Of a stretch of DNA of 64,000 nt, positions 1,085 to 59,745 are shown one piece after another (within the stretch, counting starts at the first letter, position 1; each line of letters starts with the position of its first letter). Origin of the DNA: Stegostoma tigrinum (lineage: Eukaryota); the NCBI RefSeq assembly GCF_030684315.1, contig NC_081396.1:2790001-2854000 (forward strand). Reading direction: 5' to 3'. A program made the translations under genes and the position numbers. The notes under the pieces were generated by a model. The model was not told where the DNA came from. It was given only the letters and a program-made list of their open reading frames with translations, and searched no databases.

Positions 1085-1099
1085 GCTATCTCCATTTTG

Positions 1100-1632
1100 G
1101 ATGTGAGTTTGCTCGCTGAGCTGGAAGGTTCGTTTTCAGACGTTTCGTCACCATTCTAGGTAACATCGTCAGTGAGCCTCCGATGAAGCGCTGGTGTTAT
1201 GTCCCGCTTTCTATGTTGATGAACATCAACGAGCCACAAAACGACATGACCCACTATCACTCGTATCCTTACATACAGATAAGGAAGGACACCACTTTGA
1301 TTGGGACAACACATTCTTCCGAAGACAAGCCAAACAGAGACATGCACGAGAATTCCTAGAAGCATGGCATTCCAACTGGAATTCCATCAACAAACACATT
1401 GACTTGGAGCCAATCTACCATCCCCTGAGAAAAAGAACAGGATATGACATTACCCACGCAAGGAAACCTAACCAGATAAATAGAAATCGGGACATAACAC
1501 CAGCGCTTCGTCGGAGGCTCACTGATGATGTTATCTAGAATGGTGACGAAACGTCTGAAAACGAACCTTCCAGCTCAGCGAGCAAACTCACATCCAGAAC
1601 CTCAACCTGAGCTACAAATCTTCTCAAAACTC
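1100..1632 (+). mobile_element. Penelope-like element remnant with inverted pseudo-LTR arms and a C-terminal endonuclease fragment
   Basis: Arms ~1099-1214 and ~1479-1595 are inverted copies. Internal ORF 1194-1538 contains EHQRATKRHDPLSLVSLH...REFLEAWHS. A 15-bp TSD GCTATCTCCATTTTG lies at 1085-1099 and 1633-1647. Confidence 0.85.
1516..1560 (+). ncRNA. Minimal type I hammerhead ribozyme motif in Penelope pLTR
   Basis: TCA-CTGATGA-T-GTTATC/TAGAAT/GGTGAC-GAAACGTC-TGA. An antisense copy with CTGACGA lies at ~1136-1178. Confidence 0.7.
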
Positions 1633-1888
1633 GCTATCTCCATTTTGATTAAACTGATCTATAATTTATATGTGTTCATGACTTCCTTGCTGTATTTTGC
1701 AATTTTGGCCCTTCACACCATCCTGTTGATCTTTCTGTGTCGCTCATAGCTTCTGTCACAAACGTTGCATTATGACCATTGTAATCTTAAAGATCATATC
1801 TATAAACTACAAATAAACTTGATTTAGAAGAACTAATTACATTTGTTATCAAATTCGTCAGATAATTTGTACAATGTGTTTCTTTAAG

Positions 1889-2200
1889 GTCGAGATATTT
1901 TACATCCAACTCTTCTTCTAACTGTGAGTTCAAGCGAAGAAATCGAGAGAACCAAAATTGCAACCCTCGTCTGTTCAATCACAGAATTCCATCCTAAGCA
2001 AATTTCCGTGACTTGGTTGAAGAATGGACAAACCATAGATTCTGGTATCTTCACCTCTCCCGTGTGCGAAACCAGCGGGAACTTCTCTTCGACTAGTCAG
2101 CTAAGAGTCCCTTATAGTGAATGGTTCAACAGTGCAGTCTATACGTGCAAAGCCATGCACGAAGAGGTCATTCAAAGTCGAAACATCACCGGACCACAGG
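1889..2200 (+). CDS. Ig heavy-chain constant exon (IgW CH4 / IgNAR C3 equivalent)
   Basis: Acceptor tctttaag ends at 1888 and donor GTAAGA starts at 2201. 312 nt, phase 1/1. [46 protein letters not shown]...[11 protein letters not shown] has the C1-set Cys/Trp/Cys pattern. Confidence 0.93.
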
Positions 2201-2489
2201 GTAAGAAACATTAACCAAGACAACTAAAAATCACTCTGAACTTGATGTACACCAAACACACGAATTTATCAGGTTTTGTAAACAGCACAGAACAAGTTCT
2301 AATTAACTATCATGCCTCGTGTGTCTCATTCAGTGTGAATGTGATGTCAGCTCTGCTCACAATTCAGATTAGAGAAAAGAAAACCATCGTTCCCTCAATG
2401 TTGCTGCCACGTAGACAGTTAGATGGATTCGTTTGTTGGCTGATTGTTTGTTGGAGAGAGGTGGGAGAGCAGAATCCATTACTGGTAAC

Positions 2490-2880
2490 AGCTTCCTGAT
2501 AACTTCGTTCAACGAGTGATCTCATTGAAACTTAGAAAATACTGGGAGATCGAGGTAGAGTGGAAGTGAAGAAGATGTCTTCACCAGTAGTGGAGACAAT
2601 GACACGAGGGCACAGCCCAGTTTCAACGCGGCAACCATTTAGAACTTAGATGAATAGGAATATCTTTAGTCAGACAGTGATGAACCTGAGGATCTCATTG
2701 CCACAGAGAGCTGTGAAGGCCAAGTTGTTGCAAGTATTTAAAACACAGACAGACTGACTCGTGCTTGTGTGGGCAGAAGGAAGGAGAATGAGCTTGAGAA
2801 ACATGTCACACGTGATTGAGTGGCAGAGCAGAAGTAATTGGCCAAAAACGTGAAAGCCAATCTCTTGTGGTCTAAAGGTG
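2490..2880 (+). mobile_element. Old CR1 3' fragment in Ig intron (also present at ~32105-32460)
   Basis: GATCTCATTGAAAC (DLIE motif) plus a CR1-like 3' tail. It sits at the same intronic position in both Ig copies. Confidence 0.6.
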
Positions 2881-4122
2881 ACATTGTTAAATATGAAGTG
2901 ACCATGTTTTTAAAAATAAAGCAAAACACATTCACTACTTCATTCCAAGATCAGAAATTATCTGTTGGTCTTGGGCATTGTACAATGTAGACTTTAAATG
3001 TTTTGGGGCTCTTTAACTTCAATCATGACAAAAGACCACACACCAAATGGTTATCATATTTGATTAACACGTATAAACGTGATCTAATCGAGACTCTTTT
3101 AGACGTTCTCTGTAATTACTGGATGTAGCAGGAGAGCGAGGTCAGGTGGGAGTGCCACAATAGGGCTGAATGAACCAGGAATTAGAGGCAGGCTGTTTAA
3201 CCCTGGTTTCAGAATGGGGATGTTCATTCAGTGAGTAACAAAAGCCTGAATTTCACGAGCGCAAATGTCTGTTGATTTTGTACTGAGTTGAAAACACTCA
3301 TGCGTGATTTTTTTTTCTTTTTTGTTTTCGTTCTGCGAAGAAATTAAAGTTGCAGATCAGTCAATCAAATGAAAGTAGAGACCAATCATTAACTAACGGA
3401 ATGGAGGGAAAGGCTTGAGGTGATGAGTGTCCTTTCGCATTCCGATGCTGAACTCAGCGTCATACTTTCAGGTCTATTCCAATTTCGGCACGAGGAATGA
3501 TATCTCACAACATATTTTCGACAACAATCTCACACCAATAATGCAAATTGCTTTCAATCAGATTAAATTATGTGGAATATAAATTCGGTGGCCATTCAAT
3601 GTTTCTGTACAACATTAAAATCTCTTTAAAAACATGATGAATAAGAGAATAATTACGTTTGATTACAGTTGGCCCCAAATTCGGGATTTGATTTGGCACT
3701 CAGCATAACCAGCAACATTGCATGTATGGTTCATGAATGTAGAAATCTAGTCATGATATTGACCGCAGATTAGTGTTGTCACAAATATCATTCGATGATC
3801 TTAGGTGACAGAAGAACTCAGAAAGGATGATTACTCTGTGGGTTAAGTGAAGATACCTTTGGTGATATTTTTTGTTTCACAGTTTTCAGTTGTGGTGAAG
3901 CCAGTGTTCTTTAGGAATAATTGCGCCAGTCATGTTATAGGTAATCATGAATGTTTTCATGAATCAAAATATATGAATAGGAGTAAATATTGTTTCAGCA
4001 TTTGTTTGAAGTCACCAATTCGAATATGATTTCTTTACTTTGCAGGAAGTAGTCTGAAGACGTGTTTTGATCCGAAAGAGCCAGTTTTCATTGATTCCGA
4101 TTTCTTTTCATTGCCGTTGCAG

Positions 4123-4422
4123 AGCGTGGTGATCACACAATTAAAATACTACCACCACCGGTAGAACAGGTCTTACTGGAGGAGACAGTGACGTTAACCT
4201 GCGTTGTGTACAGTCTTCCTTTTGGAGTCAACGTCACCTGGACACAAGGAAGGAAGCCTTTGAAATCAGAGATTACTGAGCAAGCAGGAGACGACCCCGA
4301 CAGTGTGATCAGCAAATTAGACATTTCTACTGAAGCCTGGCTGAGTGGGGATTATTTCTACTGCGTGGTGAACCATCAGTATCTACAAACTCCTTTGACA
4401 GCTTCCATCCACAAGGAGCAAG
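4123..4422 (+). CDS. Ig heavy-chain constant exon (IgW CH5 / IgNAR C4 equivalent)
   Basis: Acceptor ttgcag ends at 4122 and donor GTGAGG starts at 4423. 300 nt. (E)[28 protein letters not shown]...VNVTWTQG...[29 protein letters not shown]. Confidence 0.93.
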
Positions 4423-4880
4423 GTGAGGGATGAGACTAAAGCACTAAGTATCCTATGAGTAATTTAGAGCCAATGATATCAATAGCATGCGTTGTTTGTA
4501 ATGGACTAACACCGTTGGCAGCAATAATGGTGCATTTTACGACTGGAAAGTGAAGTTTCTATTAAATAAAAGATTAAAGGATCGTCTCTTGTGATTATGA
4601 TTAACTCAAACAAGGTGAGAAGAAGCCTGGAGGTTTGTGATGAAAACACCAGTTACGAAAAACAGACAGAATATTCTACTTCTGGGCTGAAAACATGGAG
4701 GTGACTTTCAAACCAAACTGGGTAGTTTTCATTGAATAGAATGGATACTACTCTGTTTCTTGACAAGTTGAAAGTGAATCAATTCCAAATTAAAAATGGA
4801 ATGCTTTAATACTTAGCAAAATATCAATATTGATTGCGCATTTTAATGATTCATTTATAATTGTTTCAAATATTCTGCAG

Positions 4881-5293
4881 CGAAAAATCCACTGGAACCG
4901 TCAGTGTCTGTCCTCCTGCCACTGGCAGAAGAAATCTCCGCTCAGAGGTTTGTCTCCCTCACCTGTTTAGTTAGAGGATTCTCCCCCAGAGAGATGATCG
5001 TCAAATGGACAACCAATGACAAGCCGGTGAATCCCAGTAACTACAAGAACACCGAGGTGATGGCAGAGAATGACAACACCTCCTTCTTCATGTATAGCCT
5101 GTTATCCATTACAGCGGAGGAGTGGGCCGGCGGTGCTTCTTACTCCTGTGTGGTGGGACATGAAGCGATTCCATTGAAGATCATCAACAGAACAGTTGAT
5201 AAATCCAGCGGTAAACCGAGTTTTGTGAATATTTCGCCGGCACTGATGGACACCATCAACTCATGCCAATGTAAATCTCAAGGTCTGCTTTAA
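4881..5293 (+). CDS. Last Ig constant exon (IgW CH6 / IgNAR C5 equivalent) plus secretory tailpiece
   Basis: Acceptor ttctgcag ends at 4880. (A)[13 protein letters not shown]...[12 protein letters not shown]...[23 protein letters not shown]. Internal donor G|GTAAAC at 5210/5211 serves the membrane form. The tail reads [27 protein letters not shown]. Confidence 0.93.
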
Positions 5294-5299
5294 GAATTC

Positions 5300-5305
5300 A
5301 ATAAA
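5300..5305 (+). terminator. Polyadenylation signal of the secreted Ig transcript
   Basis: AATAAA begins 7 nt after the stop codon and is followed by T-rich sequence. Confidence 0.75.
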
Positions 5306-6479
5306 AGTAATAACGCGTTTCTTTCCTCAAATTGTGATTTAAATACACAATATTTTAATTAATTTTGTTTCCCAGTTTTACTAATATTTCATCCTTTGAG
5401 TTAAAATTGATTATTCGCAGCTCTCTGGCACATGTCAGGTGCAGTTAATGCTCCCTACTCAGGCACACTATGGTTCGGTCAGAGACAGATTAAAGCACAC
5501 ACATTGTAGGATTCTGCAAAATACCTCGTCCACCTTAAATCCCACTGAGAATAAATCTAACAATTTCTGTTTTACGACAAATGAACATGCATTTTGATCT
5601 TGCTGTTTCTGAGCCCCACTTGCCTACTCCTTTAAAGTTCACGTCAGCATAGCATGAATTGGGGACATAAACTTAAGACACTCCGAAAATAATTTTTGAT
5701 TGCAAGTTACAAACAGGAAAGAGAAGCTATGGGTACCAATCACAAAGAGTGGAAAGTAACTTGAATTTAACCTGTGTCTGGGAAACTAGAAGGGATCTCG
5801 CACCATGGCAATGGCTGACAGAATGCACCTTCACTTCTACACTAGTGAGAAACAGATGAAAAAAATGTTATTGCGGAGCACAGAGGAAAGAGAGGGAACA
5901 ATTAATGGGCTGCTTTCTTACTGCTGTACATAGTTTTTTTACGACAGAGGCCGTTTGTAATGTGAGCTCATTGCAGACAGGAGCAGTTATTCTCTTGCTT
6001 AATGTCTAGCTTTCTTTCGGAAAATGTAAAGTTTCCATGCAAAGTTATAACTCTGAAGCATTTCGGATGCACTTGTCCACCTTGATCACCTCCGAACATT
6101 GATTACCCACAATCGAAGCCTAAACCGATGATTGCAATAATCCTGTTGGTATTCCACATTTTGTGGGACACATGAGATCAATTCTGGTATTTGAGCACCT
6201 TAAGTCATTTGTTTCGAGTATAGAGCACTTGTAGATATTTTCCAGTGAACATCTTCGGAAATGTTCTCTGGAGCTGTGGGAATCTGAACTCAGGCCTCTG
6301 GTCTCAAAGACAGAATTCATTGACAAGACACTTATCTTTTCACAATAACCAGTAATGTGCCCTACACCATCCAGGTCAGACCACATTGTTGGCAATCGAT
6401 TAAAATTAAATCAGGAATAAAAATATTCATTGTCTACTGTAAGAGCAGAAATGTGCATCGATACTAAAACACGCTCGCA

Positions 6480-7570
6480 AAAGCAGCCAAAAGAACATAG
6501 ACACAGTCTCAACTGAAGACACAAGATGAATGCACACATAGAAAGGCGCATTCAATTTCGTTGAGACACAAATACGTACAAAACATTAGCATTCGCACAA
6601 ACACTCACACAAATGCACACACATAGAAAGAAAGAAACAAACATACAATTGTGAACAGGAGTTCCTGCATAACGAGGAAAAACATTTTCACACGTTGAGT
6701 CACAACTGGGCACGAAGGTATGTACATTTGTTTACCATAATACCTCCAGACACACATGCGTAAACAACAGGTACACATCCGAAATATCCTCCCGCGTCTA
6801 CACTCAGAAGGGATATATGAGCACAGAGATCAATATTAATCGCATTACTACCCCACTTTAAAACACTTGGGCACATGTGGAGAGAGGTAGCTCAATTATT
6901 TATTGTAAAACTACACTGATTGGCACATGTACATGGTCACGTCACACACACATGCAAACACGCAAGTGCTCAGATCAACAAATAGTGGAACATTCGCAAA
7001 ACGAGGATTATGACACAAGCATCAGCATATATCCACACACAAAAACACAACTAAGCATATCAGAAGACGTTTTACTCTGCATTGATGCACAAACAGGCAT
7101 CATCACACAAATATTAACATGCATCACAACATGAAGTTGCATACTAACTTAACACACTTCTGGCGCACAAACATGAATGTATCCTTCTGTACGTAGGATC
7201 TGAAAGGAACACACAAGAACAGATTTTAGTTGGCACACAATAATAAAGCTTTCAAAAAGTCATTAAAAGATAAACGTAAGCACCAACGAACGAAGTGGCA
7301 TGTTAACACAATTCAAATTTTGAAATGAACAACATTTACATACACAAGCACGGTCATGTAAATGAACAAACAAGCAGTAAAGGAACATGAACACGTTCAT
7401 TGATGCACAAACTTCAAGAAGGATATGTGCGAAGTAAGAGGCACTCATAACCATAAAGACAAGTGTTACAGGAAAAACAGATACTCGAAGCTATAGGTAA
7501 AAATAAATGAAGAGACACAAGACAAAAAAAGACTCCTGATGCATGCAGAACATACAATCAAAAGCATGAA
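6480..7570. repeat. Decayed CA-rich low-complexity tract (paralogous tract ~34280-35440)
   Basis: Dense ACACA/CACAT motifs between the secretory and TM exons in both Ig copies. Confidence 0.6.
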
Positions 7571-8050
7571 GCAATACTCTTACAGTGGATCTAAATTATG
7601 TGCATGATTTGCCAAGAAATTGGGAAAAAAAACATTCTTGAAACAAATGAGCAATTACGTTTGAACTCCGATTCAGTGATGGCCATAAATTTTCCCCTAA
7701 ATAGTTGTCACAGCCTATATTTAAAGTAAAGCAAGGTAATTAATATGATAATTCCCACTCAGTATTCCTTGAATTATAATGATTATTATATTTTCCAATA
7801 ATAGATTAAATGACGTAATAATTCAAAATGTCTTGATACGGATAATAAAGCAAACAGATTGCAGCCAGTACTGGTTAGTTATTGCTGAGAATCACAAACA
7901 CAATGATAGATGCAGATAAGATCCAAATTTGCGGTCACCCTGGCTGTTTGTAGAAAATGTTAATGTCCCTGATGGCTTTGCATATACGCAAAAACATCCG
8001 ACTTGATCAATGAGCAATCTAAATACATTCTATTGACGTTATATTCACAG

Positions 8051-8178: not shown

Positions 8179-8316
8179 GTGAGAACAATCAAAACATTAA
8201 CACTTCAAACAGACGAATATGGTTTGTCAGATCTTTAAGTGTGTCACTGAATAAAAAGTAAAACGCAAATGTCCCTGATCATAAACATGTGCATCAATAA
8301 TTTTCGCTCTTTCTAG

Positions 8317-24259: not shown

Positions 24260-27075
24260 TCGTATGAACGTTGATCTTATACAGAAGCATTTCTCGCTGC
24301 GACTTCTGAAAGACACACTCACTGCAATGCGCCGGCAGCTTCAAATACTACAACCAAGCCTACCCCAACTCAGAGCCTCTCTCTCCCAGGCCTGCAAAGG
24401 ACCTCTCCTGTTTGTTTATATCCTTGGTAAGAGCCACAACCTGAACTCTCAATTTTACTCAGCTTTATCAGACACTAAAAACCGAAAACACTGTAAACTC
24501 ACTGATGCTTGCTACCACAAGCCAAAACCTTCCCCACCATGTTCCCGCCGCCATTGGCCACGTGGTCACCTTCGGCGCACCGACGGTTTCCACGGATGAC
24601 ATCACATTCACGGTCACCCGGTACGCCACTTCCGGTACAAACGACGCCATCAACACCGCTGCTGAAGCCGCCACCTCCGTTTCGGAGGCGAACAAAGACA
24701 TCGAAGACGCCGCTGCCGCCAACATCATCCATTTCCCGACCGACGTCCCTCCACCCACATCCGACGTCGCTCCGCCCACCGCCGACATCGCCCCGCCCCC
24801 CCCCCGCCCACCACCGACGTCGCTCCGCACACCTCCTTCATGGCCAGCATCTCCCCAGACAAGACACTAACACCCAGCCCTGCCGAGCCTTCACCATCCC
24901 TCCAGACCTCCCCCTTACTGAGGATAAACGGTCAGTCCTCAATAAAGGACTCACCTTTGTCACCCTCCACCCACACATCGACGAATACAACTCTCGTTTG
25001 GACTTTGAGTAGTTTTTCCGCCGGTTCCGCCTCCTCACTTAATTCTTTAATGGTGAGCCTAACCCTCGCTCTACTGACCTCTTGTCCCGCCTCCAACGTT
25101 CCCCGTCCTCCTGGACATCACCCCAAGGCCTTCTATCATCCCTTGACCTCTTCATCTCTAATTGTCTTCGAGACATCGATCGCCTCCACCTCGCCACCCC
25201 TCTCACCGACTCCAACCTCTCCCCGGCAGAATGTGGAGCGCTCTGCTCCCAACACTCCAATCCCAACCTCACCATCAAACCCGCAGACAAGGGAGGCACA
25301 GTTGTAGTCTGGTGCATTGACCTCTACATCATCGAGACCAGGTGTCAACTCACTGACCCCTCCTCCAATTTCCCCCTTGATTATGATCCCAGCCACACAA
25401 TCATCTCCCAACCCATCCACAATCTCATCACCTCAGGTGACTTCCCACCCACAGCATCTAACCTCACTACTCCCCAACACTGCACCACCCGCTTCGATCT
25501 CCTTCCCAAAATACACAGACGTGACTGCCCTGGTTGACTAATTGTCTCCACCTCCTCCTGCCCCCTAAACCTATCTGCACTTCACTGGACTCATTTTTTC
25601 CCCATTGGTCCAGCAACTCCCTACCGACATCTGTGACACCACCCACGCTCTCCACCTCCTCCAGAACTTCCAATTCCCTGGTCTCCAACACATCACTTTG
25701 ACTATGGACATCCAGTCCCTATACAGCTGCATTCCCCATGCAGATGGCCTAAAGGCCCTCCACTTCTTCCTGTCCCGCAGTCCTGACCAGCGCCCCCCCT
25801 TGACTGACACCCTCATCCACTCATCCGAACTCGTCCTCACCCTCAATAACTTCTCCTTCAATTCCTCACACTTCTCTGCATCCAAAGGGGGTGGACATGG
25901 GCCCAATCTTTGCCTGCCTCTTTGTAGGATACGTGGAACAATCCCTCTTCCAAAGCTATACTGGCCATATACCCCCTCTCTTTCTCCATTACATTGATGA
26001 ATGTTTCAGCGCGGACTCGTGTTCCCACAAGGAGCTCGAACAGTTCATCCACTTCAATAACACCTCCGACCTCAACGTTGATTACCTGGACCACGTCTGA
26101 CACCTCTCTCTCCTTCCTGGACCCCTCTGTCTCCATCTCTGGTATTCACCTTGAACCCGATATCCATTTTGAACCTAGCGACTCCCACATCTACCCAGAA
26201 TACTCCTCCTCTCACCCACCTTCCTGAAAAAAGGCCAGCCCCGTTCTCCATTCTTTCGCCTCCGTAGCAGCTGCTCCCAAGATGAGGCATTCTTCTCCAG
26301 AAAATCCCAGATATCCTCTTTTTTCAAGGACTGCAACTTCCCCTCCTCAGTGATCAAAAATGCCCTCAAACGTGTCTCCTGCATTTCCTACAACTCGTCC
26401 CTCACACCTCCTGTCCTCAATAATAACCAAAACAGAGTCCCCCTCATCCTCATGTACCAATCCACCAACCTTAAAATCCAATGCATCATCCTCCAACATT
26501 TCCGCCATCTGCAAACTGACCCCATTGCCAAAGACATTTTTCCCTCCCCACCCTTATGCGCATTCTGGAGGGACCACTCTCTCCATGGTTCCCATGAACG
26601 CTCCACACTTCAGCCCCAGCACGTCCAACACATTTCCCTGCAACCGAAACAAGTGTTACACCCGCCCCTATAACTCCTCCCTCACCGCCATCCCTGGCCC
26701 GAAAAAGACTTTCCACATCAAACAGATGCTCACCTGCACATCTGTTAATGTGATGTACTGAATCTACGATTCCCGTTGTGGCTTCCTCTACATTGGGGAA
26801 ACCAAGCGGAGGTTTGGGGACCGCTTTGCAGAACACCTTCACTCAGTTCACAACAAACAACTGCACCTCCCAGTCGCAAACCATTTCAACACCACCCCCA
26901 CTCCTTTACCACGCCACGACTCCTCGGATGACATCAACCTGGGTCTCCTGCAGTGCCACGATGACGCCATCCAAAAGATGCAGGAACAGCACCTCATATT
27001 TCGCTTGGGAACCCTGCAGCCCAAGGGTGTCAATGTGGACTTCACCAGCTTCAAAATGTCCTCTCTCCCGACCAA
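24260..27075 (+). mobile_element. Decayed Penelope-like retroelement (RT plus GIY-YIG endonuclease)
   Basis: Frameshifted segments SVLNKGLTF, IKPADKGG, LLPKIH, TMDIQSLY, LTLNNFSFNS, MGPIFACLFVGYVE, YIDEC and GFLYIGETKR. Confidence 0.9.
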
Positions 27076-28412: not shown

Positions 28413-28976
28413 GGCTTCTCGCACCCTCAGACGGTAAGTAAAAATTTTAAGCGGAAGCCAGCTTTCGGCTCGTTACTATGGCAGAAGCATTTGATTGTTA
28501 CCAAGTATATAGGCTGACATTTCAAAAGCTGTGGACAGCCTCAGGCTGTTTTTCCTCCCCTTTGCTGAGCCCGTCTCCCAACTTTTAACTTCTGAAGCTT
28601 ACACAGAGGAACTGGAGAATGGAGGCGGTGAGTACGAGTCCAGGGCGGTATGGGAGACGAGACGGAAACCGTACAGGCAGCGACAGTGAGAGGTTGAGCC
28701 TGGTGCGGGAAACAGTCCGAGTGCAGGCCAGCCTGGAAGAAGAATCCTGATGGCGAAGTCGTGAGCCAGAGCCTGGAGTGGGAGGCAGTGCAAGCCCGGG
28801 CTGGCCCAGGGAGACGAGTCGTCCAACGCTATAAGGCAGCGATGCCTGAATTTCTGAAGAGTGGTAGAGCAGACTCAGTGAAAACGACTGCAATTTCATT
28901 AGTTTTTAAAGATACTCATTCTTATTCTGGACTTTCAGTAATTCGATTTTTTTTAAAAGTGTATTCCTATGCGACA

Positions 28977-29117
28977 GAAATAATGAGAACTGCAGATGCT
29001 GGAGAATCCAAGATAACAAAGTGTGAAGCTGGATGAACACAGCAGGCCAAGCACCATCTCAGGAGCGATCCTGAGATGCTGCTTGGCCTGCTGTGTTCAT
29101 CCAGCATCACACTTTGT
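28977..29117 (-). mobile_element. Fold-back Penelope pLTR derivative with collapsed centre
   Basis: Palindrome centred at ~29066. 15-bp TSD TATTCCTATGCGACA at 28962-28976 and 29118-29132. No hammerhead core. Confidence 0.85.
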
Positions 29118-29272
29118 TATTCCTATGCGACACTTTTGTTTTTAATTCTTTCAATTATGTAACAAAGTAAACATAACTTGCCATTCCATACCTCAGATGG
29201 CGCCAAATCAACGACATTACCAAATTTTCAAAGCACTCATTGGAGTGCATGTGAAAAATCTGTTCTTCTATT

Positions 29273-33980: not shown

Positions 33981-35667
33981 AAGTGTTGACTTCGTTTTCT
34001 GAAGCACATAGGATCAATTCTCGTATTCGAACACCTGAAGCCGTTTTATTTCACATACAGAGCAATGGAAGATATTTCCTAATCAATTTTATTATACATC
34101 TCTCGAGTCGTGGGGATTTCAACTCAGGCCTCTTGTCTCAGAGGCAGAAATTTCATCACTACAACAAAAGAAGTCGTTCACAAAGCATTTATCTACCAAG
34201 GCCGCGAGAAATGTTCCCGACATCATCAGAGTCACACCTAACGGTTGGCAATCGACTAAAATTAGAACAACAATAAGAATGAATGAATGATACAAGTGCA
34301 TAAACACACGCAGATACAGACAAATGCTCACAAATGCACACAAGACACACATATACAGGATCTCACCTCAAAGGACATGCATATGCACACACATAATTGT
34401 ACATACAGATAAACAGTGACACGCACACACAGGCAGAGACACACATGCGTATGATACATGACCGCTCATGTGAACACTCACAAAAACGTACGTACACAGA
34501 AAGAAATGCACATACACACAAATGAACAAGGGCACCCACACATAACCATTAAAAACATAGACACACGTTAACACACAAATCACCATGAATACATGCACAA
34601 GCTTATTCCATAAATGTACAGACATACATGTATAGACACACATACAACATCTGAGAAATGTCCTCCGACACATACAAACAAACAGACATATAAGAGCACG
34701 GAGATAAGCACTAATCTCATTATTATCCAACTTTCGCAAACATAGATATGTAAGCAGAAAGGCAGCTTACTTATTTATTTTTAAACCACATCGATTAGCA
34801 CGTAAACCCTGGCAAGCATACAAACAATTTACGTGTTGCAAACATGCAAGTGCATATATCAACAAACAGTGTGTCATATCAAAACAATGGGACTCTCACA
34901 CAAGCGTCAGCAAACATCCAAATGCGATAACACAAGTAAGCACATCGCGAGATGGTTTAGGATACACTGACACACAAATAGACATCATCACATTAATATA
35001 AACATCTATGATAAAAATGAATTTGCAAACTAACATAACACATTTATGGAGCACAACATGAAGATAACCTAACATGGGTAGGATCTGAAATGGACACATA
35101 TTTCAGGTAGCACTAACGCAAAGAAAATCACAAATACATTAAAAGACAAACATAGGTATCAAGAAATGAAATGACATATTAACACAGTGCTTCTTACACG
35201 TTGTGAAATGAGCAACATTTACGTACTAAAGCACAACCAAGTAAATGAAAGCGCCAGCACCAAAGGAGTATGAATATGTTTATTCATGCACAATCTCCAA
35301 AATCAACGCGGAGAATAACCACATACACAAATATGAAAGGAAAACCCTGCGCACCATGCTGTATACAAAAGTAACTCGAGGGACACGTGCACAACAAGTT
35401 ATTCCTAACACATACAGATTCGGCAAGCAGAAATATGAAGCAATGTTCTCACTATAGATCTAGTTTATGCTCATGATTTGCCCAGCAATTAATCACAAAT
35501 AAGTGAAGAAGATGAACAATCACATTTGAAGTCTTATCGAGTGATGGCCACAATTTTCAACCAAACAGTTGTCACAGCCTAAATCGAAAATAAAATGATA
35601 TATTTAATGTAATCGTTCCCATTGAATGCTCCTCAAATGGTAACAATGATTATATGAAAAATGTTGT

Positions 35668-36235
35668 GGATGTGAGTTTGCTCGCTGAGCTGGAAGTTTC
35701 GTTTTCAAACGTTTCATCACCATTCTAGGTAATATCATCAGTGAGCCTCCGGTGAAGCGCTGGCGTTATGTCCCGCTTTCTGTTTGTGTTTAGGTTTCTT
35801 TGGGTTGGTGATGTCATTTCCTGTGTTGCTGATGTCATTTCCTGGTCTTTTTCTCAGAGGGTAGTAGATGGGCTCCAAATCAATGTGTTTGTTGATGGAA
35901 TTCCGGTTGGAATGCCATGCTTCTAGGAATTCTCGTGCATGTCTCTGTTTGGCTTGTCCTAAGGTGGATGTGTTGTCCCAATCAAAGTGGTGTCCTTCCT
36001 TATCTGTATGTAAGGATACGAGTGATAGTGGGTCATGTCTTTTTGTGGCTAGTTGATGTTCATGTATCCTGGTCACTAGCTTTAAATAGAAAGCGGGACA
36101 TAACACCAGCGCTTCACCAGAGGCTCACTGATGATGTTATCTAGAATGGTGACGAAACGTCTGAAAACTAACCTTCCAGCTCAGCGAGCAAACTTACATC
36201 CAGAACCTCAACCTGAGCTACAAATCTCACAAATC
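35668..36235. mobile_element. Penelope-like remnant with inverted pLTR arms (same family as 1100-1632)
   Basis: Arms at ~35668-35781 and ~36086-36201. Internal endonuclease fragment on the minus strand (ORF 35738-36106). Hammerhead core at 36128-36161. Confidence 0.85.
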
Positions 36236-36484
36236 GTTAGCTCAATGTTATGTTAAATGTTGAAACAGTTCAAAATGATATGACAGAGATAATAAAGGAA
36301 GAACAGCTGCAGTTAATATTAGCAAGTTATTGCTGACAGTCACTAACTCAATAATAGATATAGATCGAGAGTCAAATTTTACAACAACCTGATGGCTTCA
36401 AGAAGATGTAATGGTGACTTATTTAGATACAGATAGATCAGACTGGATCAATCTAAATACATTCCCTCAGCTTTCTATTCATAG

Positions 36485-50247: not shown

Positions 50248-51489
50248 ATGAATGTTGAAGGAGAAAGCACCATTCATATCAAGGAGAAAAATGTACCATC
50301 TGTATGTGGAAGAGTCTGTGAAGATTCATCTGAAATGTCCAAACATCAGGAGAGTCACACTGGGGAGACACTGTGGATATGTGGTGATTGTGGAAAGGAA
50401 TTATTTTCCCCATCCAAGCTGGAAATTCACCAATGCAGTGACAGCGGGGAGAAGCCGTTCACTTGTTCTGATTGTGGGATGAGATTCGCTCAGGCATCCA
50501 GCCTGCTGATACATGAGAGAGTTCACACTGGAGAGAGACCATTCACCTGCTCCAAATGGGGAAACTCATTCACTCACTCATCCAACCTGCTGAGACCCCA
50601 GCGAGTTCACCCTGGTGAGAGACCATTCACATGTTCTGAATGTGGAAAAGGATTCATGCGGTCATCCAGTCTCCAGATACACCAGCGAGTTCACACTGGA
50701 GAGAGACCGTTCACCTGCTCCGATTGTGGAAAGGGATTCACCTGGTCAGCCAGCCTGCAGATGCACCAGCGGGTTCACACTGGAGAGAGACCGTTCACCT
50801 GCTCCGATTGTGGAAAGGGATTCACTCGCTCATCCATCCTGCAGATACACCAGCGAGGTCACACTGGGGAGAGACCATTCACCTGCTCTGATTGTGGAAA
50901 GGCGTTCTATTCATCATCCAGCCTACAGATACACCATCGTGTTCACACTGGAGAGAGACCATTCACCTGCTCCGATTGTGGAAAGGGATTCTCTTCGTCA
51001 TCCAACCTGCAGATACACCAGCGAATTCACACTGGGGAGAGACCATTCACCTGCTCCATGTGTGGGAAAGGATTCACTCAGTCATCTAAACTTCTGGAAC
51101 ATCAGGGAATTCACACTGGAGAGAGACCATTCAATTGCTCCCAGTGTGGGAAAGGATTCACTTCCTCATCCAGCCTGCTGAAACACCAGCGAATTCATAC
51201 TGGGGAGAGACCATTCACCTGTTCTGATTGTGGAAAAGGATTCATTTGCTCATCTAAACTATTGCAACACCAGCGAGTTCACACTGGGGCGAGACCATTC
51301 ACTTGTTCTGAATGTGGAAAAGGGTTCACTTCATCATCCAACCTGCTGGAACACCAGCGAATTCACACAGGGGAGAGACCATTCACCTGCTCTGATTGTG
51401 GGAAGGGATTTACCAAGTCATCCCACCTGCGCAGACACCAGCGAGTTCACACTCGGGAGAAACCTTCACTCAGTCTACTCACCTGCTGA
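50248..51489 (+). CDS. Tandem C2H2 zinc-finger protein (413 aa, 11 intact fingers)
   Basis: CxxC-12-HxxxH repeats with TGERPF linkers. Three degenerate fingers lie near the N-terminus. Candidate acceptors end at 50177 or 50243, and AATAAA lies at 52051. Confidence 0.92.
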   Translation: MNVEGESTIHIKEKNVPSVCGRVCEDSSEMSKHQESHTGETLWICGDCGKELFSPSKLEIHQCSDSGEKPFTCSDCGMRFAQASSLLIHERVHTGERPFTCSKWGNSFTHSSNLLRPQRVHPGERPFTCSECGKGFMRSSSLQIHQRVHTGERPFTCSDCGKGFTWSASLQMHQRVHTGERPFTCSDCGKGFTRSSILQIHQRGHTGERPFTCSDCGKAFYSSSSLQIHHRVHTGERPFTCSDCGKGFSSSSNLQIHQRIHTGERPFTCSMCGKGFTQSSKLLEHQGIHTGERPFNCSQCGKGFTSSSSLLKHQRIHTGERPFTCSDCGKGFICSSKLLQHQRVHTGARPFTCSECGKGFTSSSNLLEHQRIHTGERPFTCSDCGKGFTKSSHLRRHQRVHTREKPSLSLLTC

Positions 51490-52149
51490 TACTCCAGCTG
51501 TTCACGCTATGGCAAGGCTGTTGACTTGTTCCATATGTGAGAAGGGATTCATTCTGTCCAAATTGTTAACACACCAGTGAAATGACAAAGGGCGGATCCC
51601 ATTCACCTGCTGTGTTTGTGGACAAGGCTTTGCTGTTTGTTAATATACCAGCAAATTTACAAAGAACCACAGTGATGGGTTTTGCATTTATTCACACCAA
51701 GGAATGAGCCTTTATCACGAGAATGTTTGTATTGCTGTTACCAAATTAAGCCCTTTTGAAAGGTGCTAACGTTATAGATAAAATGTTGATAAGATTGTGT
51801 ATCTAGGATAGGTTTTTGAAATGATCACAATGTCATTGTACATCAACGCATTTATAGTGGGTAGAGACTGTCCACCTACACTGTGTTTGTAAAGTTATTT
51901 TGTAGCTCACGTGGAGTAGTTAAACAACAATGAGCTACCCGTAACTGTCAGTGTTGGATTTTGATGCTATTGTCATCTATATTCAAATCTTGGCTTCTGT
52001 ACCTGTTTCTGATGATACTTGTAAATACTTCGGTTCAATGACCTATCTGGAATAAAGATAATCCAAATCATCTTTTTGTTAAATTTATGTTGCATCAAGA
52101 CTTTGTTTTATTCTCAGTGCCTTTGAGATAAGCTGATCAGTACCTTTCT

Positions 52150-52850
52150 TCATATGAACAATTGGGAGAAGGAACATCCTGCAGTGAGGTACAGCCTGTC
52201 ATGCTGGAAATTTAGATAAATGTGCAGATGGGGTGCTTGTAACTTCGCTTGGCAAGGGATCCAGAGAGAACATCCAAAAGAGTGAGAAGAATCAATGTGA
52301 CAGGCCAGTTCAGGTACAACAGAGTTTAATATGATTCTGTGGCATTGATTTTAATGTTGCGAGTTTGTCAAACGAAGCAGATGAGCGAGGGATATGAATT
52401 CAAATAATTGGGTACGATGACATTGCTGTCATTGAAACACGCTTGACAGTAAGGAAAGGATTGGAAGCTTAATACTTCAGCGTACAAGGTCTTCATGCGA
52501 GACAGCAAAGGAGTCAAAGGAAGTGAATGTGTCACAGTTATGTTTCAGGAATTTATTACAGTAATAAGGAGAGATGACATCTTAGAAAATTCCTTAAATA
52601 AATGTTTATGGGTGGAACAAGTAGAGCTAGTAAGGAGGTAGATTTCAGGAATGTGTAAAAGTAATAGGGTCGTGACAGTGCGGGATTTCAATTTTCACAA
52701 CATTCACTATAGTCGTCATTATGTGAAAGGCTTTGAGAAACTTTTAAAAGAGATCCAGGACAGCTTTTGTAGGTAGCATGTAAAATCAAAACCAGGAAAC
52801 GGGAGGCTCTAGACTTAATTTTAGGTAGTAAATACCGACATGTGGTTGAA
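52150..52850 (+). mobile_element. Old CR1 endonuclease fragment
   Basis: YDDIAVIET and NRVVTVRDFNF motifs. Confidence 0.65.
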
Positions 52851-52899
52851 GTTATCCCCTGTTAGCCAGAACGTTGGTGGTTGGTAGACCAGCCAGGGA

Positions 52900-54400
52900 T
52901 GGAAGCCGATTTCTTTTTGTTTTTCCGTCAGCATACTCCGTGACACCGTCGTGGATTGTCAGTGGGGATTTTGGCTGCAAGACAATTTTGCCTAATGTGC
53001 CCTCCACGATTAGACCTCGAATGACGGCTTCTAATGCATAGTGCTGCGAATTATGAAGAAAGACTCTTGCTGCAATGACTCTTAGAAGCACTATCTATGA
53101 TCTTTCCCCTTGAGTCAAGAACTCTCAACAGGAAATTGCTTACAGTAAAATTATGAACTTTTGTTCAATCTTAATTCAATCCTTGGAACAAAATTTACAA
53201 TTGAATTTCTGAAAGGTTCCACTGATGAACATTGCAAGTGAAAAATAAACCATTGATGATGATTCTGACTGACTTGCATGTTCACCCACATTTTCAGCTA
53301 CATTATGAAATTACTCAGGAAGATGAAACAGTAAAATATTTTACAAGGTTCATCAATAAAAGTTTCTTGAATCAAAATTTGTATTGATGAAATTTAGAAG
53401 TCATTGAATCAAATTATTTATGACACTATAGCAACAACATGTGGGAAAGGCAGAAGCCATAACAAAGACTAGTTTGAGGCCCAATGAGCAGAGATGATGT
53501 CTATCACTGAAGCAAAAAAAAATGAAGCCAATCAGATATGCAACATAAATCCAACAGCTAGAACACTGCACGACACGGAAGCAGCTAAGACAATTATGTA
53601 AAAGACAAGGAGATTGTGTGCAAATAAAGGCTGGGTGATCCCACACAGGGACCAAGTGAGATTTTTTAAAAAAATATGTAATGGATTGAAGGGTGTAGGA
53701 GAACACGGCAGGAAAGTGGACTTGAGGCCAGGATGAGGTCAGCCAAGATTGTATTAAGTGGTGGAATAGGCTCAAGGTACTGGGGATTACTTCTGCTCCT
53801 CATTCTTATGTGTTTATGTGGAAGAAATTCACACTGCCTGTACCAGTGGAAATCTATGGGCTTTTTGGGATGAACGAAGAGGGCATTTGGTCCAACCATC
53901 ACTGAAGTTACCCTCCTGAAATCAGACAGCAACATTTTCACTGGCAGAAGAAAGTAGATGCCCTGCTGGGTTAAACACGACTATGAGCAGTACTCCCATT
54001 AGTTGGACATCTTCCCATCTCCATATGATGCTCTCATACAGCTTCCAGTCATCATTAAGTTGGATCAGGAATACGAAAGATTCAAAAGGAGTTAATAGCT
54101 TACCAAACAGCAAGGCCACGTAGGATGGTGGAATTTGCCTGCATTTTTGAGGTTTGAAAATTCACAAGAACTGCTGCACTTTCATGACCTCCTATTCCCG
54201 AGGATGTGACAGATGGAAAAATTACTACAATTTATGAAACCCAATGCCTCTAGATGAGATTACAACAACCACAGGAATATCTCATTCACCATCACGAGGA
54301 AAGCCTTCTGTGGGGCCATATTTAAAAAGCCTTCATCTGCCTCCGGACTAACTGTACCCAGAAGTATACCTGTGATACAAAGTCATATAAGGTATGGACT
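52900..54400 (+). mobile_element. Highly decayed RTE-clade LINE remnant, interrupted by a CR1 tail (~53680-53820)
   Basis: Frameshifted ALIQLPVIIKLD, LPNSKAT, DGKITTIY, YNNHRNIS and RKAFCGAIFK resemble the RTE segment KIITLYK..NNYRGISLL..GKAFARVIL as recalled. Confidence 0.5.
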
Positions 54401-54829
54401 AAGTGATGGAAAATGAGAGATGAATAGTGAGGAGGTTGTTTTCGACTGATGCAGACTCAATTAGCTGAATGGCCTTTTTTTGATGTACACGTCTGTGACC
54501 CACTCCTTTCAAACCATAATCCATGTATTGTACCATCTGACAGTATGACATTTGACATTTTCTGTGTGAGCAATGGAGTGAAACATATGCCAACAGCAAA
54601 GTCAAAAACCCACAACAACTCCTGATAAATCTGAATCGTAATAATTTCTCTCGGAGATAGGGCAAGGAGATATATTTTGAATGAAGAGACGAGGAAATAA
54701 AGGCCAATAAGCGATTCTATTAAAACACTGCTTTCCAAAACATTTCCTGATGTGACCCCAGAGTAAGGTTTTTTGAGGCGGTGTTCTAAGTTTTACCATG
54801 GAATGGGGAAAGGGAAGATAGTTGGGGGT

Positions 54830-55370
54830 TTATTAATAGATTCATCATGCAGTTGGACATGTTATTAATGTAATAAGATCTGTATTATTCATGTTTAAAA
54901 AATACAGGAATGACTTTGATATAATGCAGTCATAACGATTGATGGAACAGAAATATGATTATTAATTGAAATAATTCTAAATAGATTTGAATTAGAATCG
55001 TGATTATTGGTGCAATAAGTTTATGCTTATTGATGGAGTATGCAACAGGAACTGTGTAAATCATCAGATAATGATTAATGTAATAGAATCCTGACTGTTA
55101 ATGTAATAGGGCACTGATTATTGGCAGGCACCAGACTATTAATGTAATTTTGTCCCAATAATTAATGTGTTCATCTCATGAAAGATGGAGTAACAGGATT
55201 CTGAGAATGGATGTAATAGAAAACTGATTTTTCATGTAGTTGGACTGTAAACATTGATGTAACAAGATCCTCATTAATGACACAACAGGATTCTGATTAT
55301 TAGTGTAACTGAATCGTAATTATTAATACATTATGATACTGAATTTTGATGTAACATTTTCCTGTAATAA
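54830..55370. repeat. Degenerate AT-rich minisatellite (~22 bp unit)
   Basis: Recurrent CTGATTATTAATGTAATAGGAT-like unit. Confidence 0.7.
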
Positions 55371-58012
55371 GAATCAAATACCTACCCTTTCACAGGCTTG
55401 TTTCAGTGCAGTGAAGCCCCAGGGGGCAGTCCAAAAGGTCACAAGGGGATTTAAAGGGACCTTGCAGCTGTCAGACATCAGTATGAGCACCACAGCAGCC
55501 ATTGCTGACTGGGAACTCGTAAATCCAAACAGCAGATTCTTACCAGCAGCATTAAACAGGAGACGGGGGGAAGCATCGAGGAAGGGCTTGAGCAGCAGAG
55601 TTTCAAATCATCTCACAGTTCCAGGCGACGGTGGGCTGAATGTCAGAGGCTGGTCAGGAAGGCACTGGAATTCTCAAGTCTAAAAGAAACACTGGCATTG
55701 GTCAGGGTTTCAGCAACCAATGAGCTGGAAGTGAAATGTGTGGTGTCAGCAATACTCTGCATTTGTGGTCAGAAGCCAATCTTAGGGTTAAATGTCCGTG
55801 TGGGATTATGAACAGCATGGTTAAGCCCCATGCAGTTGAAAGGGAGAGGGATGGAAATGAGGTAGAGTTGGGAGTTATGAGTACTTGACTGAAAACTAAC
55901 GCTGTACTTCTGAATGATATCACCCTGGGGCAGCATGGAGATGAGAAATAGAAGCGGCCAAGCATGGATCTTTGGGGAAGCCAAGTCCAAGCAACTTGGA
56001 GACGAAAAGAAGATTGGAGACGAGGGCAGTCGTTTGCAAGGAAAATGATTTCAAGGGTTTTTTTCTCCCGATGTGTGATGACAATGGAAGTAAACGTGAG
56101 AAGGATAACTCTGGGTAACTCTATTTCAGACAACACAACCATAATGGGCCAAATGGCCTTGATCTGTAGTGTAACTTCCTATTTTTATTCTGATACTTAG
56201 AGTTCAATTCTGATGTTAATAACCTCTCAAATTGTACTGGAGTGTAATATTCTCAAATGTATCTCTGTAGATTGTTGTATTTCTCCCCTGAGGGTTTAAT
56301 ATCACCTGGAGCTCAGAAAGGGCAATCTCTGCAGAGGATCATATGGCAGCAGCAGAACTTCAGCCTGGACACATCTTTCAGGGTCACACTGAGGGGACAA
56401 ATAGCACTTTGGGTGTTTCACGTCTCTGTTCTCTGACAGCAAAGCCCCAGTTTGGGTTAAACCATGAGGCACATACAAAATGTGTCCCAGCCACTGTCTT
56501 CCATGTGTCAGAGCTCCAAGACATGGAGCAGAATCTCATTTACAACTGGGCTTAGAGTCAGAGAAAAAAACAGTGGTGAATGCTGGTAATGTGTTTGAAA
56601 TCAAAAATTAGTGAAAAACTCTGATCTGTTCTTGACTAGAAGTGAACTGTCCGGTTTAAATTTCCCCTACATTGGTAAAGATAAAACTGTTAAACCTACA
56701 ACATGGAGATCAAAAGCACATGAACAGGGCTATGAGCAGCCTGTCTCAATCTCTGCTGAAACCACACAGGATGCACCAGGCAAAAGTGAGAGAAAGATCA
56801 GAGTCAAAATTATACTTAACAAAATTATACCAAAAGTGTGGACATGGGAGGGTTGAAAAAAAAGTTAACTTTCAGTTTTCAATAACCACAAGTAACAGTT
56901 ATTGGTCAGGAAGAAATGTAACAGGGGTTAGTGCTGGCAGTGAGAAGCATTTTCTCTGAAGGAGTTTTATCTGAGACTTCATCAATTTCTGAGGATGCGT
57001 AACCTGCTATGAATGTCCTCAAGACGTGTATTTTTCCCCCCACTTTGATATAATTTCCCATCTTGCCTACCTTTCATTCATTTGTCCTATCCAGTCATTC
57101 ACTTTGTGGACAGTTTCATCTGACAATGTTTGATTTTATTTCAGAAGCCTTTACAAAATGCTTGACACCATCCAACACAAATCAGCCCTCTCGATTCGCA
57201 CTCAAACTAACTCCATGTACATTGGTAATATATACTGCTGGGCTGATACAGTGCATCAGGGGTGAAGGGAGTCAATAAGATGCACTGCAATGACTCAGCG
57301 AGGCTCCCCCAACAGCACATTCCCAATTTGCAACCTTTACGATCTAGAAGCACAAGATCAGCAGTCATACATGAATACCACCAACTGCTTGACCCCCTCC
57401 AGCCCACATGCCATCCTGACTAGGAAATATTTCATGCCCTTTGAAGTTGTTTGGCCGAAATCCTGGCAGTCCTTCCCTAACGGCACCACAAGTCCACTGA
57501 AACACATCGACTGCAGCGGCTCAAGAAGGCAGCCTACAAAAGCAGTCATTAAAGTCACCACCGATACATCAGAAATTAGGTCACAATTTCAGAGCAGTCA
57601 AACCTAATTGATCGTGGTCTGCTGTGTTCTTCCAGCTCCACACTTTGTTATCTCTGACTCCAGAATCTGTAGATCTTGCAATCTTAGGGAATTGTCCACG
57701 TTGCTTGTAAAACAAAAAGTGCTAAACTTCCATTTTAACCGCGCAAGGCAAAAACATTTGATTTGACCACAATACACAGGAAAGGCCTCCAGTAAGAATA
57801 CAGCTGCTTTGAGCAGGAAGATATGGCCGTAGTTTCTCTGAAAAACCTACACTATCAACACTTCTTTTGCAACCAAACGAGACTGTGTTTCCAAGTGGGG
57901 GGTCAAGTCCCAGGACTTCTGAGTCAGAAATGAAAATGCTGTCATTGAATCAAGGCTACAATATAGCATTGACTTCCATATTTGGTGTAACTACACCAAA
58001 CTTTTAACAAGA

Positions 58013-59745
58013 GGAGATAATGGGAACTGCAGATGCTGGAGAATTCCAAGATAATAAAATGTGAGGCTGGATGAACACAGCAGGCCAAGCAGCATCTCAG
58101 GAGCACAAAAGCTGACGTTTCGGGCCTAGACCCTTCATCAGAGAGGGGGAGGTGGACCGAAGATGGAGAGTAAAGAAGATAGGTGGAGAGAGTGTAGGTG
58201 GGGAGGTAGGGAGGGGATAGGTCAGTCCAGGGAAGACGGACAGGTCAAGGAGGTGGGATGAGGTTAGTAGGTAGCTGGGGGTGCGGCTTGGGGTGGGAGG
58301 AAGGGATGGGTGAGAGGAAGAACCGGTTAGGGAGGCAGAGACAGGTTGGACTGGTTTTGGGATGCAGTGGGTGGGGGGGAGGAGCTGGGCTGGTTGTGTG
58401 GTGCAGTGGGGGGAGGGGACGAACTGGGCTGGTTTTGGGATGCAGTAGGGGAAGGGGAGATTTTGAAACTGGTGAAGTCCACATTGATACCATATGGCTG
58501 CAGGGTTCCCAGGCGGAATATGAGTTGCTGTTCCTGCAACCTTCGGGTGGCATCATTGTGGCAATGCAGGAGGCCCATGATGGACATGTCATCTAGAGAA
58601 TGGGAGGGGGAGTGGAAATGGTTTGCGACTGGGAGGTGCAGTTGTTTGTTGTGAACTGAGCGGAGGTGTTCTGCAAAGCGGTCCCCAAGCCTCCGCTTGG
58701 TTTCCCCAATGTAGAGGAAGCCGCACCGGGTACAGCAACTCATATTCCGCCTGGGAACCCTGCAGGAGTGTCCTCCGACACTTCCGCCATTTACAATCCA
58801 ACCCCACCACCCAAGACATTTTTCCATCCCCACCCCTGTCTGCTTTCCGGAGAGACCACTCTCTCCGTGACTCCCTTGTTTGCTCCACACTGCCCTCCAA
58901 CCCCACCACACCCGGCACCTTCCCCTGCAACCGCAGGAAATGCTACACTTGTCCCCATACCTCCTCCCTCACCCCCATCCCAGGCCCCAAGATGACATTC
59001 CACATTAAGCAGAGGTTCACCTGCACATCTGCCAATGTGGTATACTGCATCCACTGTACCCGGTGCGGCTTCCTCTACATTGGGGAAACCAAGCGGAGGC
59101 TTGGGGACCGCTTTGCAGAACACCTCCGCTCAGTTCGCAACAAACAACTGCACCTCCCAGTCGCAAACCATTTCCACTCCCCCTCCCATTCTCTAGATGA
59201 CATGTCCATCATGGGCCTCCTGCACTGCCACAATGATGCCACCCGAAGGTTGCAGGAACAGCAACTCATATTCCGCCTGGGAACCCTGCAGCCATATGGT
59301 ATCAATGTGGACTTCACCAGTTTCAAAATATCCCCTTCCTCTACTGCATCCCTAAACCAGCCCAGTTCGTCCCCTCCCCCCACTGCACCACACAACCAGC
59401 CCAGCTCTTCCCCCCCACCCTGTCTCTGCCTCCCTAACCGGTTCTTCCTTTCACCCATCCCTTCCTCCCACCCCAAGCCGCACCCCCAGCTACCTACTAA
59501 CCTCATCCCACCTCCTTGACCTGTCCGTCTTCCCTGGACTGACCTATCCCCTCCCCACCTATACTCTCCTGTCCACCTATCTTCTTTTCTCTCCATCTTC
59601 GGTCCGCCTCCCCCTCTCTCCCTAATTATTCCAGAACCCTCACCCCATCCCCCTCTCTGATGAAGGGTCTAGGCCCGAAACGTCAGCTCTTGTGCTCCTG
59701 AGATGCTGCTTGGCCTGCTGTGTTCATCCAGCTTCACATTTTATA
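58013..59745. mobile_element. Young Penelope-like 3' portion arranged as a ~700-bp inverted duplication
   Basis: Left arm 58013-58731 is antisense and right arm ~58763-59745 is sense. Hammerhead cores at 58114-58141 (-) and 59657-59684 (+). Confidence 0.9.
58623..59519 (+). CDS. Penelope GIY-YIG endonuclease domain (5'-truncated, chimeric N-terminus)
   Basis: CNRRKCYTC linker and NVVYCIHCTRCGFLYIGETKRRLGDRFAEHL...EQQLIFRLGTLQPYGIN. Confidence 0.8.
   Translation: MRLGGAVVCCELSGGVLQSGPQASAWFPQCRGSRTGYSNSYSAWEPCRSVLRHFRHLQSNPTTQDIFPSPPLSAFRRDHSLRDSLVCSTLPSNPTTPGTFPCNRRKCYTCPHTSSLTPIPGPKMTFHIKQRFTCTSANVVYCIHCTRCGFLYIGETKRRLGDRFAEHLRSVRNKQLHLPVANHFHSPSHSLDDMSIMGLLHCHNDATRRLQEQQLIFRLGTLQPYGINVDFTSFKISPSSTASLNQPSSSPPPTAPHNQPSSSPPPCLCLPNRFFLSPIPSSHPKPHPQLPTNLIPPP

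Follow-up and report, generated by a model that had tools for sequence, protein, structure and literature searches.

What are the short palindromic insertions, with their hammerhead ribozyme motifs, that are scattered over a 64,000-nucleotide (nt) stretch of Stegostoma tigrinum DNA (contig NC_081396.1, positions 2,790,001 to 2,854,000, to be referred to as the window), and how did they acquire two arms in opposite orientation? From their sequence features, the hairpins are ends of Penelope retroelements of two families, B of the Neptune type and A of the Poseidon type. The insertions have two classes of 3' ends with one of each per insertion, a characteristic duplication length, coupled arms and preferred arm stops. 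They are probably (at roughly 70%) one-off head-to-head insertions of Penelope 3' ends, in which both nicked DNA strands would prime on the same RNA, one at an inner and the other at an outer start site. The basic anatomy (inverted repeat, one-sided tail and target duplication) is already published, and the new part is mechanistic.

Two start sites and one tail per insertion

Positions are numbered relative to the hammerhead, +1 being the C of CTGATGA and 0 the preceding base. The arms were surveyed in 185 loci and the window. Their 3' ends are bimodal, located at +90-97 and +125-130 in family B and at +74-82 and +108-111 in family A, and there is a minor outer start site near +143-150 in family B. 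The initial annotation of the window had described a 20-40 nt extension on one arm; the tail is indeed confined to one arm, with a length of about 33-37 nt.

A single tail is present in 104 of 106 two-armed insertions; the other 2 are tailless, and there are no cases with two tails. Some loci were chosen by tail pattern, a choice that cannot conceal two-tailed cases. Exactly one tail is found in 38 of the 39 two-armed insertions from untargeted 10-kb stretches. A stricter set of 94 two-armed insertions, drawn from all loci and overlapping the set of 106, contains 93 with one tail, the exception being the window hairpin at 45558, whose short arm continues into a duplication similar to the template. 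Single arms number 208, compared to the 106 pairs; old fragments and arms truncated at locus edges are part of this number. In some of the single arms, 7-15 nt of the other start site persist in inverted orientation.

Coupling of the two arms

The arms range from less than 20 nt to 3.4 kb in length, those of family A being measured only as far as -544, the end of the reference. In 42 unselected pairs with a duplication, the two lengths are correlated (Spearman 0.69): both arms are short in 35 pairs and both long in 6, and 1 pair is mixed. The arm that extends further 5' is the untailed one in 23 of these pairs and the tailed one in 14, with 5 ties. The main stop zone (see below) is crossed by all 13 partners of very long arms, compared to 44 of 153 arms overall. 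Subfamily variants are common to both arms in 65% of cases as compared to 23% in shuffled pairs (shuffled maximum 32.5%), and 12 rare variants are common to both arms as compared to 0.5 in shuffled pairs.

A second marker of the template is provided by wrap junctions, where the element body is joined to sequence upstream of the start sites. The corresponding pattern, reading through past the tail, has 2,199 matches in the genome, and the first 100 of these contain wrap junctions at 32 of 81 distinct loci, 2 being long internal deletions. The wrap units are mostly 260-500 nt, with up to seven repeats and identical joints in one locus (L323). When two further wrap loci from the long-arm set are added, the junction is the same in both arms of 11 of 13 informative insertions, with an identical joint in 9 and a difference of 1-2 nt in 2. 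Between insertions, the junctions mostly differ. Back-splicing is rejected as their origin, as the acceptor sides have no AG. An untemplated G precedes position -3 in the wrap junctions at 4 loci, including both arms of L337, and the other 6 loci examined have C at this position. Capped RNA is not ligatable, and therefore at least the G-bearing wraps are likely to be enzyme jumps, as described for R2 (PMC11371274).

A minority of the insertions are retrozyme-like tandem arrays. The arrays keep the TATA-like box (see below), the hammerhead core and the start sites in each unit, and are better candidates for a non-autonomous ribozyme element than the hairpins. Two unusual arrangements were also seen. 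In L222 (1192-6242), one arm is missing the segment from -123 to +241 and the other arm has the same segment three times, a reciprocal arrangement. In L344 (1459-1728), a 28-nt piece near +216 to +243 is repeated about nine times at the centre, resembling enzyme slippage at the RNA's 3' end.

Target cut

Exact duplications of at least 10 bp flank 74 of the 94 insertions in the stricter set, as compared to 0 of 300 mismatched flank pairs. Their lengths are 13-16 bp in 60 of the 74, with a mode of 14. As chance would lengthen a duplication by less than one base on average, a stagger of about 14 nt follows, close to the value of about 15 nt proposed from the window. The flanks are mirror-symmetric, 43 of the 74 having A at flank position -3 and 38 having T at its mirror position, which suggests the presence of two endonuclease domains. 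At each start, one or two target bases often match the template.

Positions where the arms stop

At their other end, 67 of the 115 arms that reach +11 terminate between -7 and +11, at a rate at least 5 times that of the neighbouring zones. The sequence TATTTAT is located at -33, so the RNA start would fall near -3. An extra G precedes arms that start at -3 in 11 of 15 unselected cases. In the genome, it is present in 71 of the first 100 of 12,119 matches (hand count), where the G can also come from the partner arm. For 30 loci with a pattern that excludes the simplest partner join, 9 are single-nucleotide polymorphisms (SNPs) in longer arms and the G is found in 16 of the other 21; with 7 ambiguous loci dropped, it is found in 9 of 14 (p 0.005). 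Such an extra G is credited to cap copying in L1 and SVA (PMC3287187). The main stop peak is predicted to be a capped transcription start about 3 nt before the hammerhead, and from this peak and the extra G we infer a promoter role for the TATTTAT copy at 14458..14464 of the window.

Two other causes of the peak were considered and rejected. Splicing does not fit the scatter of the ends from -6 to +11 and the missing constant upstream exon, and the peak lies about 30 nt 5' of the ribozyme cut. Separately, family A arms in 3 of 30 loci (L278, L282 and L283) begin at about +18 to +21, directly after a shared A-rich end.

The hammerhead and its predicted cut

A minimal type I hammerhead core with its stems is present in both families, and the stem sequences are different. 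An Rfam scan of the window gave no hammerhead at E values up to 5, and the assignment therefore rests on the motif. The Rfam matches to a norovirus untranslated region and to microRNAs are below threshold and correspond to generic hairpins.

Arm starts were counted over the whole genome as arms beginning exactly at a given base, with two upstream mismatches. For family B, the counts are 545 at +28, 3,982 at +29 and 514 at +30, with +29 being the first base after the predicted cut. The first 100 matches at +29 comprise 55 palindromic joins, 9 microhomology joins, 8 SNP-like cases and 28 others (hand count). Palindromic joins on four-base self-complementary words were counted as well, with 682 on AGCT at the cut, 47 on ACGT just upstream and 21 on GGCC downstream. 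One wrap junction also enters at +29 (L243). For family A, there are 136 arm starts at the cut base compared to 31 at the next base, the single neighbour compared, and 7 of the first 100 at the cut base are blunt joins at the cut. The pile-up at the predicted cut base suggests that the ribozyme cuts in the living animal. A small share of the templates would be cleaved in this way, for which the footprint is indirect evidence.

A proposed mechanism with two cDNAs on one RNA

The observations can be arranged in the following scheme. The element protein, presumably as a dimer, would nick both DNA strands about 14 nt apart. Each free DNA end would then prime its own complementary DNA (cDNA) on the same RNA, one at the inner and one at the outer start site. 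The two cDNAs would extend towards the 5' end of the RNA and join head to head, probably blunt or through a few complementary bases. Hairpins of about 230 bp would form when the template ends early, in most cases at the capped start, some 3 nt 5' of the hammerhead, and in some at the site where the ribozyme cuts. Finally, the enzyme could wrap around a short RNA from its 5' to its 3' end, by a jump or on a circle, giving rise to a tandem array. We regard the extended form of the proposal as evenly balanced; it adds that this symmetric insertion (dimer, 14-nt cut, one RNA copied twice) is specific to Penelope and that the genome records the cap start, cleavage in vivo and wrapping into retrozyme-like arrays. 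If this is true, it would account for inverted pseudo-long terminal repeats (pLTRs), tails and tandems together.

Several observations weigh against this scheme. Most of the stretches surveyed came from contig ends and from C1. Mixed pairs of long and short arms exist, both without a duplication (L008) and with one (L124). In two discordant insertions (L222 and L262), one arm wraps and its partner continues into the upstream sequence. Moreover, shared variants and junctions are also expected under copy-back synthesis or later conversion between the arms. A single linear mRNA does not account for the copies that cross the upstream repeat, most of which continue past -3; the long templates have to be tandems, circles or products of jumps. 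In family A, the 5' ends are scattered, with 5 of 33 at -16/-15 and 7 at -44 to -39. For the ribozyme, stem I of family B has only 2 bp, and no energy model gave an active hammerhead in monomer and two-strand folding. The excess at +29 is reduced to about 2-3-fold when palindromic, microhomology and SNP-like cases among the first 100 matches listed are removed, and the first 100 family A matches at the cut base include 47 SNP-like cases. In the anole, no RNA reads ending at the cut site were found, and cleavage is not needed in vitro (PMC11167929).

The closest competitor is copy-back synthesis, in which a single cDNA folds back and is copied into the second arm, the rest of which would come from repair or a short second cDNA. 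Variants and junctions in common and arms of similar length are what this model predicts, and short self-complementarity is found at many centres. Snap-back junctions are described for R2 insertions (PMC11371274), and a related self-priming on an antisense template is proposed in PMC3846280. However, the 23 of 42 pairs in which the untailed arm extends further 5' also have the tailed arm extending further 3'. These pairs overhang both ways, and thus neither arm is a plain copy of the other. The arms can also differ by more than 1 kb (L225 and L228), and both outer ends are at fixed start sites. Copy-back is therefore unlikely, in our assessment.

A little further down in probability are two primings on two separate RNAs, usually from the same source locus or subfamily. 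The discordant insertions and some of the mixed-length pairs would be natural products of such events, as would the 35% of common variant calls that are unshared within an insertion, although later mutation explains part of these. On the other hand, the wrap junctions are mostly insertion-specific and yet match between the arms, the arm lengths are coupled, and independent RNAs alone leave the one-tail rule unexplained. Priming of both strands on one RNA remains the preferred reading.

In the initial annotation, the hairpins were proposed to be a non-autonomous ribozyme-bearing family, one that would be transcribed, cut by the ribozyme and re-inserted whole. The 8,616 family B hairpins centred next to the core (genome pattern count, compared to 15 for the reversed pattern) and the few recurring centres appear to favour this proposal, but 81 of 94 centres are distinct, with a single recurring centre containing inserted bases, and recurrent centres are located at RNA ends or short self-complementary words. 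The TATA-like box is missing from the short hairpins because they start downstream of it (at -3, for example), and the core is often missing as well. Moreover, the predicted fold of a hairpin transcript pairs both arms over the core, and the short hairpins belong to one size series with 3-kb arms. This possibility is largely refuted and has become very improbable; the short hairpins look like dead ends. Movement by a DNA transposase as MITEs (miniature inverted-repeat transposable elements) is refuted: the insertions are short, numerous, inverted and duplication-flanked, but their termini are unequal rather than fixed, their duplications vary over 13-16 bp and their centres vary. The arms are identical to the 3' ends of elements that encode a reverse transcriptase (RT) followed by a GIY-YIG endonuclease and, with their variable lengths and the stagger of about 14 nt, bear out the retrotransposition origin suggested from the window.

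Family identity and abundance

The family B unit is 3,591 bp, with direct and inverted repeats, and has an open frame of 1,078 codons (in L216). Pfam matches in this frame are RVT_1 (E 3e-5) and GIY-YIG (E 0.008), both under the curated cut-offs, and DKG and YIDD motifs are present. For family A, the analysis covered the C-terminal part of the protein. Both families have a CxxC between the two core motifs of the endonuclease, with histidines downstream. CxxC and linker zinc-finger features are used as clade marks in PMC8557442. The family B linker has C-x4-C-xx-C about 35 residues before the endonuclease core, in agreement with the Neptune CX2-5CxxC feature, which Nematis shares. No linker zinc finger is found in the roughly 150 residues before the endonuclease core of family A (L288), as is characteristic of Penelope/Poseidon. 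Neptune and Poseidon are the vertebrate clades in a preprint (bioRxiv 10.64898/2026.07.22.740005). The layout of endonuclease-bearing Penelope-like elements, with a partial tandem pLTR, an inverted 5'-truncated copy and an optional 30-40 nt tail, is found here.

Over the whole 3.2-Gb genome, exact 22-23-mers of family B occur 117,275 times (core) and 78,757 times (tail), and those of family A 9,266 times (core) and 10,482 times (tail). Family B has more than 100,000 arms in the genome. Two derived arrangements were observed. A minisatellite of about 50 bp, made of positions +46 to +82 from an older family B end, is present in L098, L105, L043 and L066, and a family A insertion in L155 (9482-9750) has telomere-like repeats at its centre.

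Insertions in the window

The Penelope-derived features of the window are listed below.

1085..1647: family A (Poseidon-type) head-to-head insertion; exact 15-bp duplication, 1085-1099/1633-1647; untailed arm 1095-1214, minus strand; tailed arm 1219-1632, plus strand, with the end of the endonuclease
1522..1555, plus strand: minimal hammerhead core of family A; 6-bp stem II, ACGT stem III, 3-bp stem I; cut predicted after 1555; second copy at 1172-1139, minus strand
14120..14633: insertion of a single tailed family B (Neptune-type) arm, 14132-14621, plus strand; exact 15-bp duplication, 14120-14134/14619-14633
14458..14464, plus strand: TATA-like TATTTAT, 30 nt 5' of the predicted RNA start at 14488 (position -3)
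14492..14519, plus strand: minimal hammerhead core of family B; 4-bp stem II, ACGT stem III, 2-bp stem I; predicted cut after 14519
23055..23297: older family B hairpin, 75-83% identity; exact 13-bp duplication, 23055-23067/23285-23297; one degenerate core
24282..27069, plus strand: older body of a family B relative, 2.8 kb, 75% identity, RT and endonuclease region; absent from the initial annotation
28962..29132: family B hairpin without any hammerhead core; arms from +38 and +40; exact 15-bp duplication, 28962-28976/29118-29132
35653..36262: family A head-to-head insertion; long untailed arm 35663-36083, minus strand; short tailed arm 36083-36227, plus strand; decayed 14-bp duplication
45544..45796: near-perfect family B hairpin; both arms from position 0; tail on the left arm; 14-bp duplication with one mismatch, 45544-45557/45783-45796, the right copy having the element's own (template-matching) base
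46667..46737, minus strand, and 57615-57675, plus strand: old arm fragments of a family B relative
58014..59744: family B head-to-head insertion; tailed arm 58014-58735, minus strand; untailed arm 58771-59744, plus strand, with the GIY-YIG endonuclease

The six hammerhead cores reported initially are all present, at 1522 and 36128 (family A) and at 14492, 45687, 58141-58114 (minus strand) and 59657 (family B). Three further cores are on the minus strand, at 1172, 35741 and 45684. The pure hairpins had been placed in the same core-bearing series. This holds for 45558; the hairpin at 28977 has no core, its arms starting from +38/+40, and that at 23068 has one degenerate core.

The five long duplications noted before (15, 15, 13, 15 and an imperfect 14 bp) are all real by reading of the sequence and keep their lengths, but the one at 14120-14633 flanks a solo arm and not a fold-back copy. 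A sixth, missed in the first reading, is located at 35653-35666/36249-36262 (14 bp with two mismatches, decayed). A paralogous old region near 7790 is without this insertion at 35.7 kb and represents its empty site; it derives from an old segmental duplication, 1828-8807/31408-37237, with 66-74% identity. A target duplication was looked for and not found for the element at 58014-59744.

Two neighbours of the insertions can be mentioned. The insertion at 14.1 kb is surrounded by a 195-bp direct repeat (95%; 13902-14095/14618-14810), and its 15-bp duplication is itself nearly palindromic. A U4 small nuclear RNA copy (22915-23055, minus strand; Rfam 50.7 bits, above threshold) adjoins the duplication of the hairpin at 23068 with its 5' end.

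Comparison with known systems

LINE-1 twin priming is similar in that both nicked strands prime on one RNA, giving an inversion within one target duplication. There, the two cDNAs reportedly copy different parts of the RNA. Here, both would copy the same stretch from two fixed sites.

Penelope-like elements described in PMC3846280 (Adineta Pen2a), PMC8557442 (an overview) and PMC2377424 (Penelope of D. virilis) share the head-to-head repeat, the one-sided tail of 30-40 nt, the target duplication, partial tandems, and RT followed by GIY-YIG. In these texts, as far as available, the mechanism is left open or antisense self-priming is proposed. The Adineta duplications are 8-10 bp (PMC3846280), compared to 13-16 bp here. 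Unlike those descriptions of Adineta and D. virilis, many insertions here consist of two short ends alone, and the one-tail rule, arm coupling and stops are quantified.

PAc, the Poseidon of Anolis (PMC11167929), has two adjacent internal start sites that bound a tail. Its protein cuts and extends both strands in vitro and assists the hammerhead, and a dimer is predicted. In that study, no difference in start site was seen between the strands, and the two products are not linked into one insertion. In Stegostoma, each insertion has one site of each kind and arm ends are heaped at the cut base.

The minimal Penelope hammerheads of PMC4209133 are alike in CUGANGA, one unpaired base, stem II, GAAA, the palindromic 15.2-16.2 and a short stem I. 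Stems II and I have 4 and 2 bp in family B, compared to 7-8 and 4-5 bp in Schistosoma (PMC4209133). The same paper reports motif pairs 100-700 bp apart on opposite strands, and no in vivo evidence of hammerhead cleavage.

Non-LTR retrozymes (bioRxiv 10.64898/2026.07.22.740005) are comparable to the tandem arrays here, whose units, mostly 260-500 nt, each carry a hammerhead and come from a Penelope end. Unlike the retrozymes, the arrays here mostly have their own junctions and lie inside two-armed insertions, and look like new by-products rather than an established family. The hairpins are not such retrozymes, being inverted and single and in some cases without a core; the minority arrays do have the direct-tandem feature.

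A literature search, with older reviews, Repbase and supplements outside its scope, found no paper on two cDNAs per RNA, a cap G or cut-site ends in Penelope insertions. The origin of the inverted repeats, tails and tandems is a named open question in PMC8557442, and cleavage by a minimal hammerhead in vivo was not shown in the two papers that tested it (PMC4209133 and PMC11167929). The roughly 100,000 insertions in this genome yield exact predictions on the stagger, on the use of a single start site by each strand and a single RNA by each insertion, and on where the cap and the cut base lie, all of which are testable in the existing in vitro system. Annotators should classify such palindromes under Penelope ends instead of MITEs or microRNA precursors. 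The phenomenon is real, ordinary in kind, and a useful record of how Penelope elements insert.

Other features of the window

A solitary CTGATGA-GAAAC match at 19928-19954 has no family context and is probably due to chance or a very old copy. An unrelated inverted repeat at 60799-61262 has 144-nt arms (83%) and no clear duplication. Partly decayed arrays of an 84-bp C2H2 zinc-finger repeat are located at 40276-40603 and 50326-51621.

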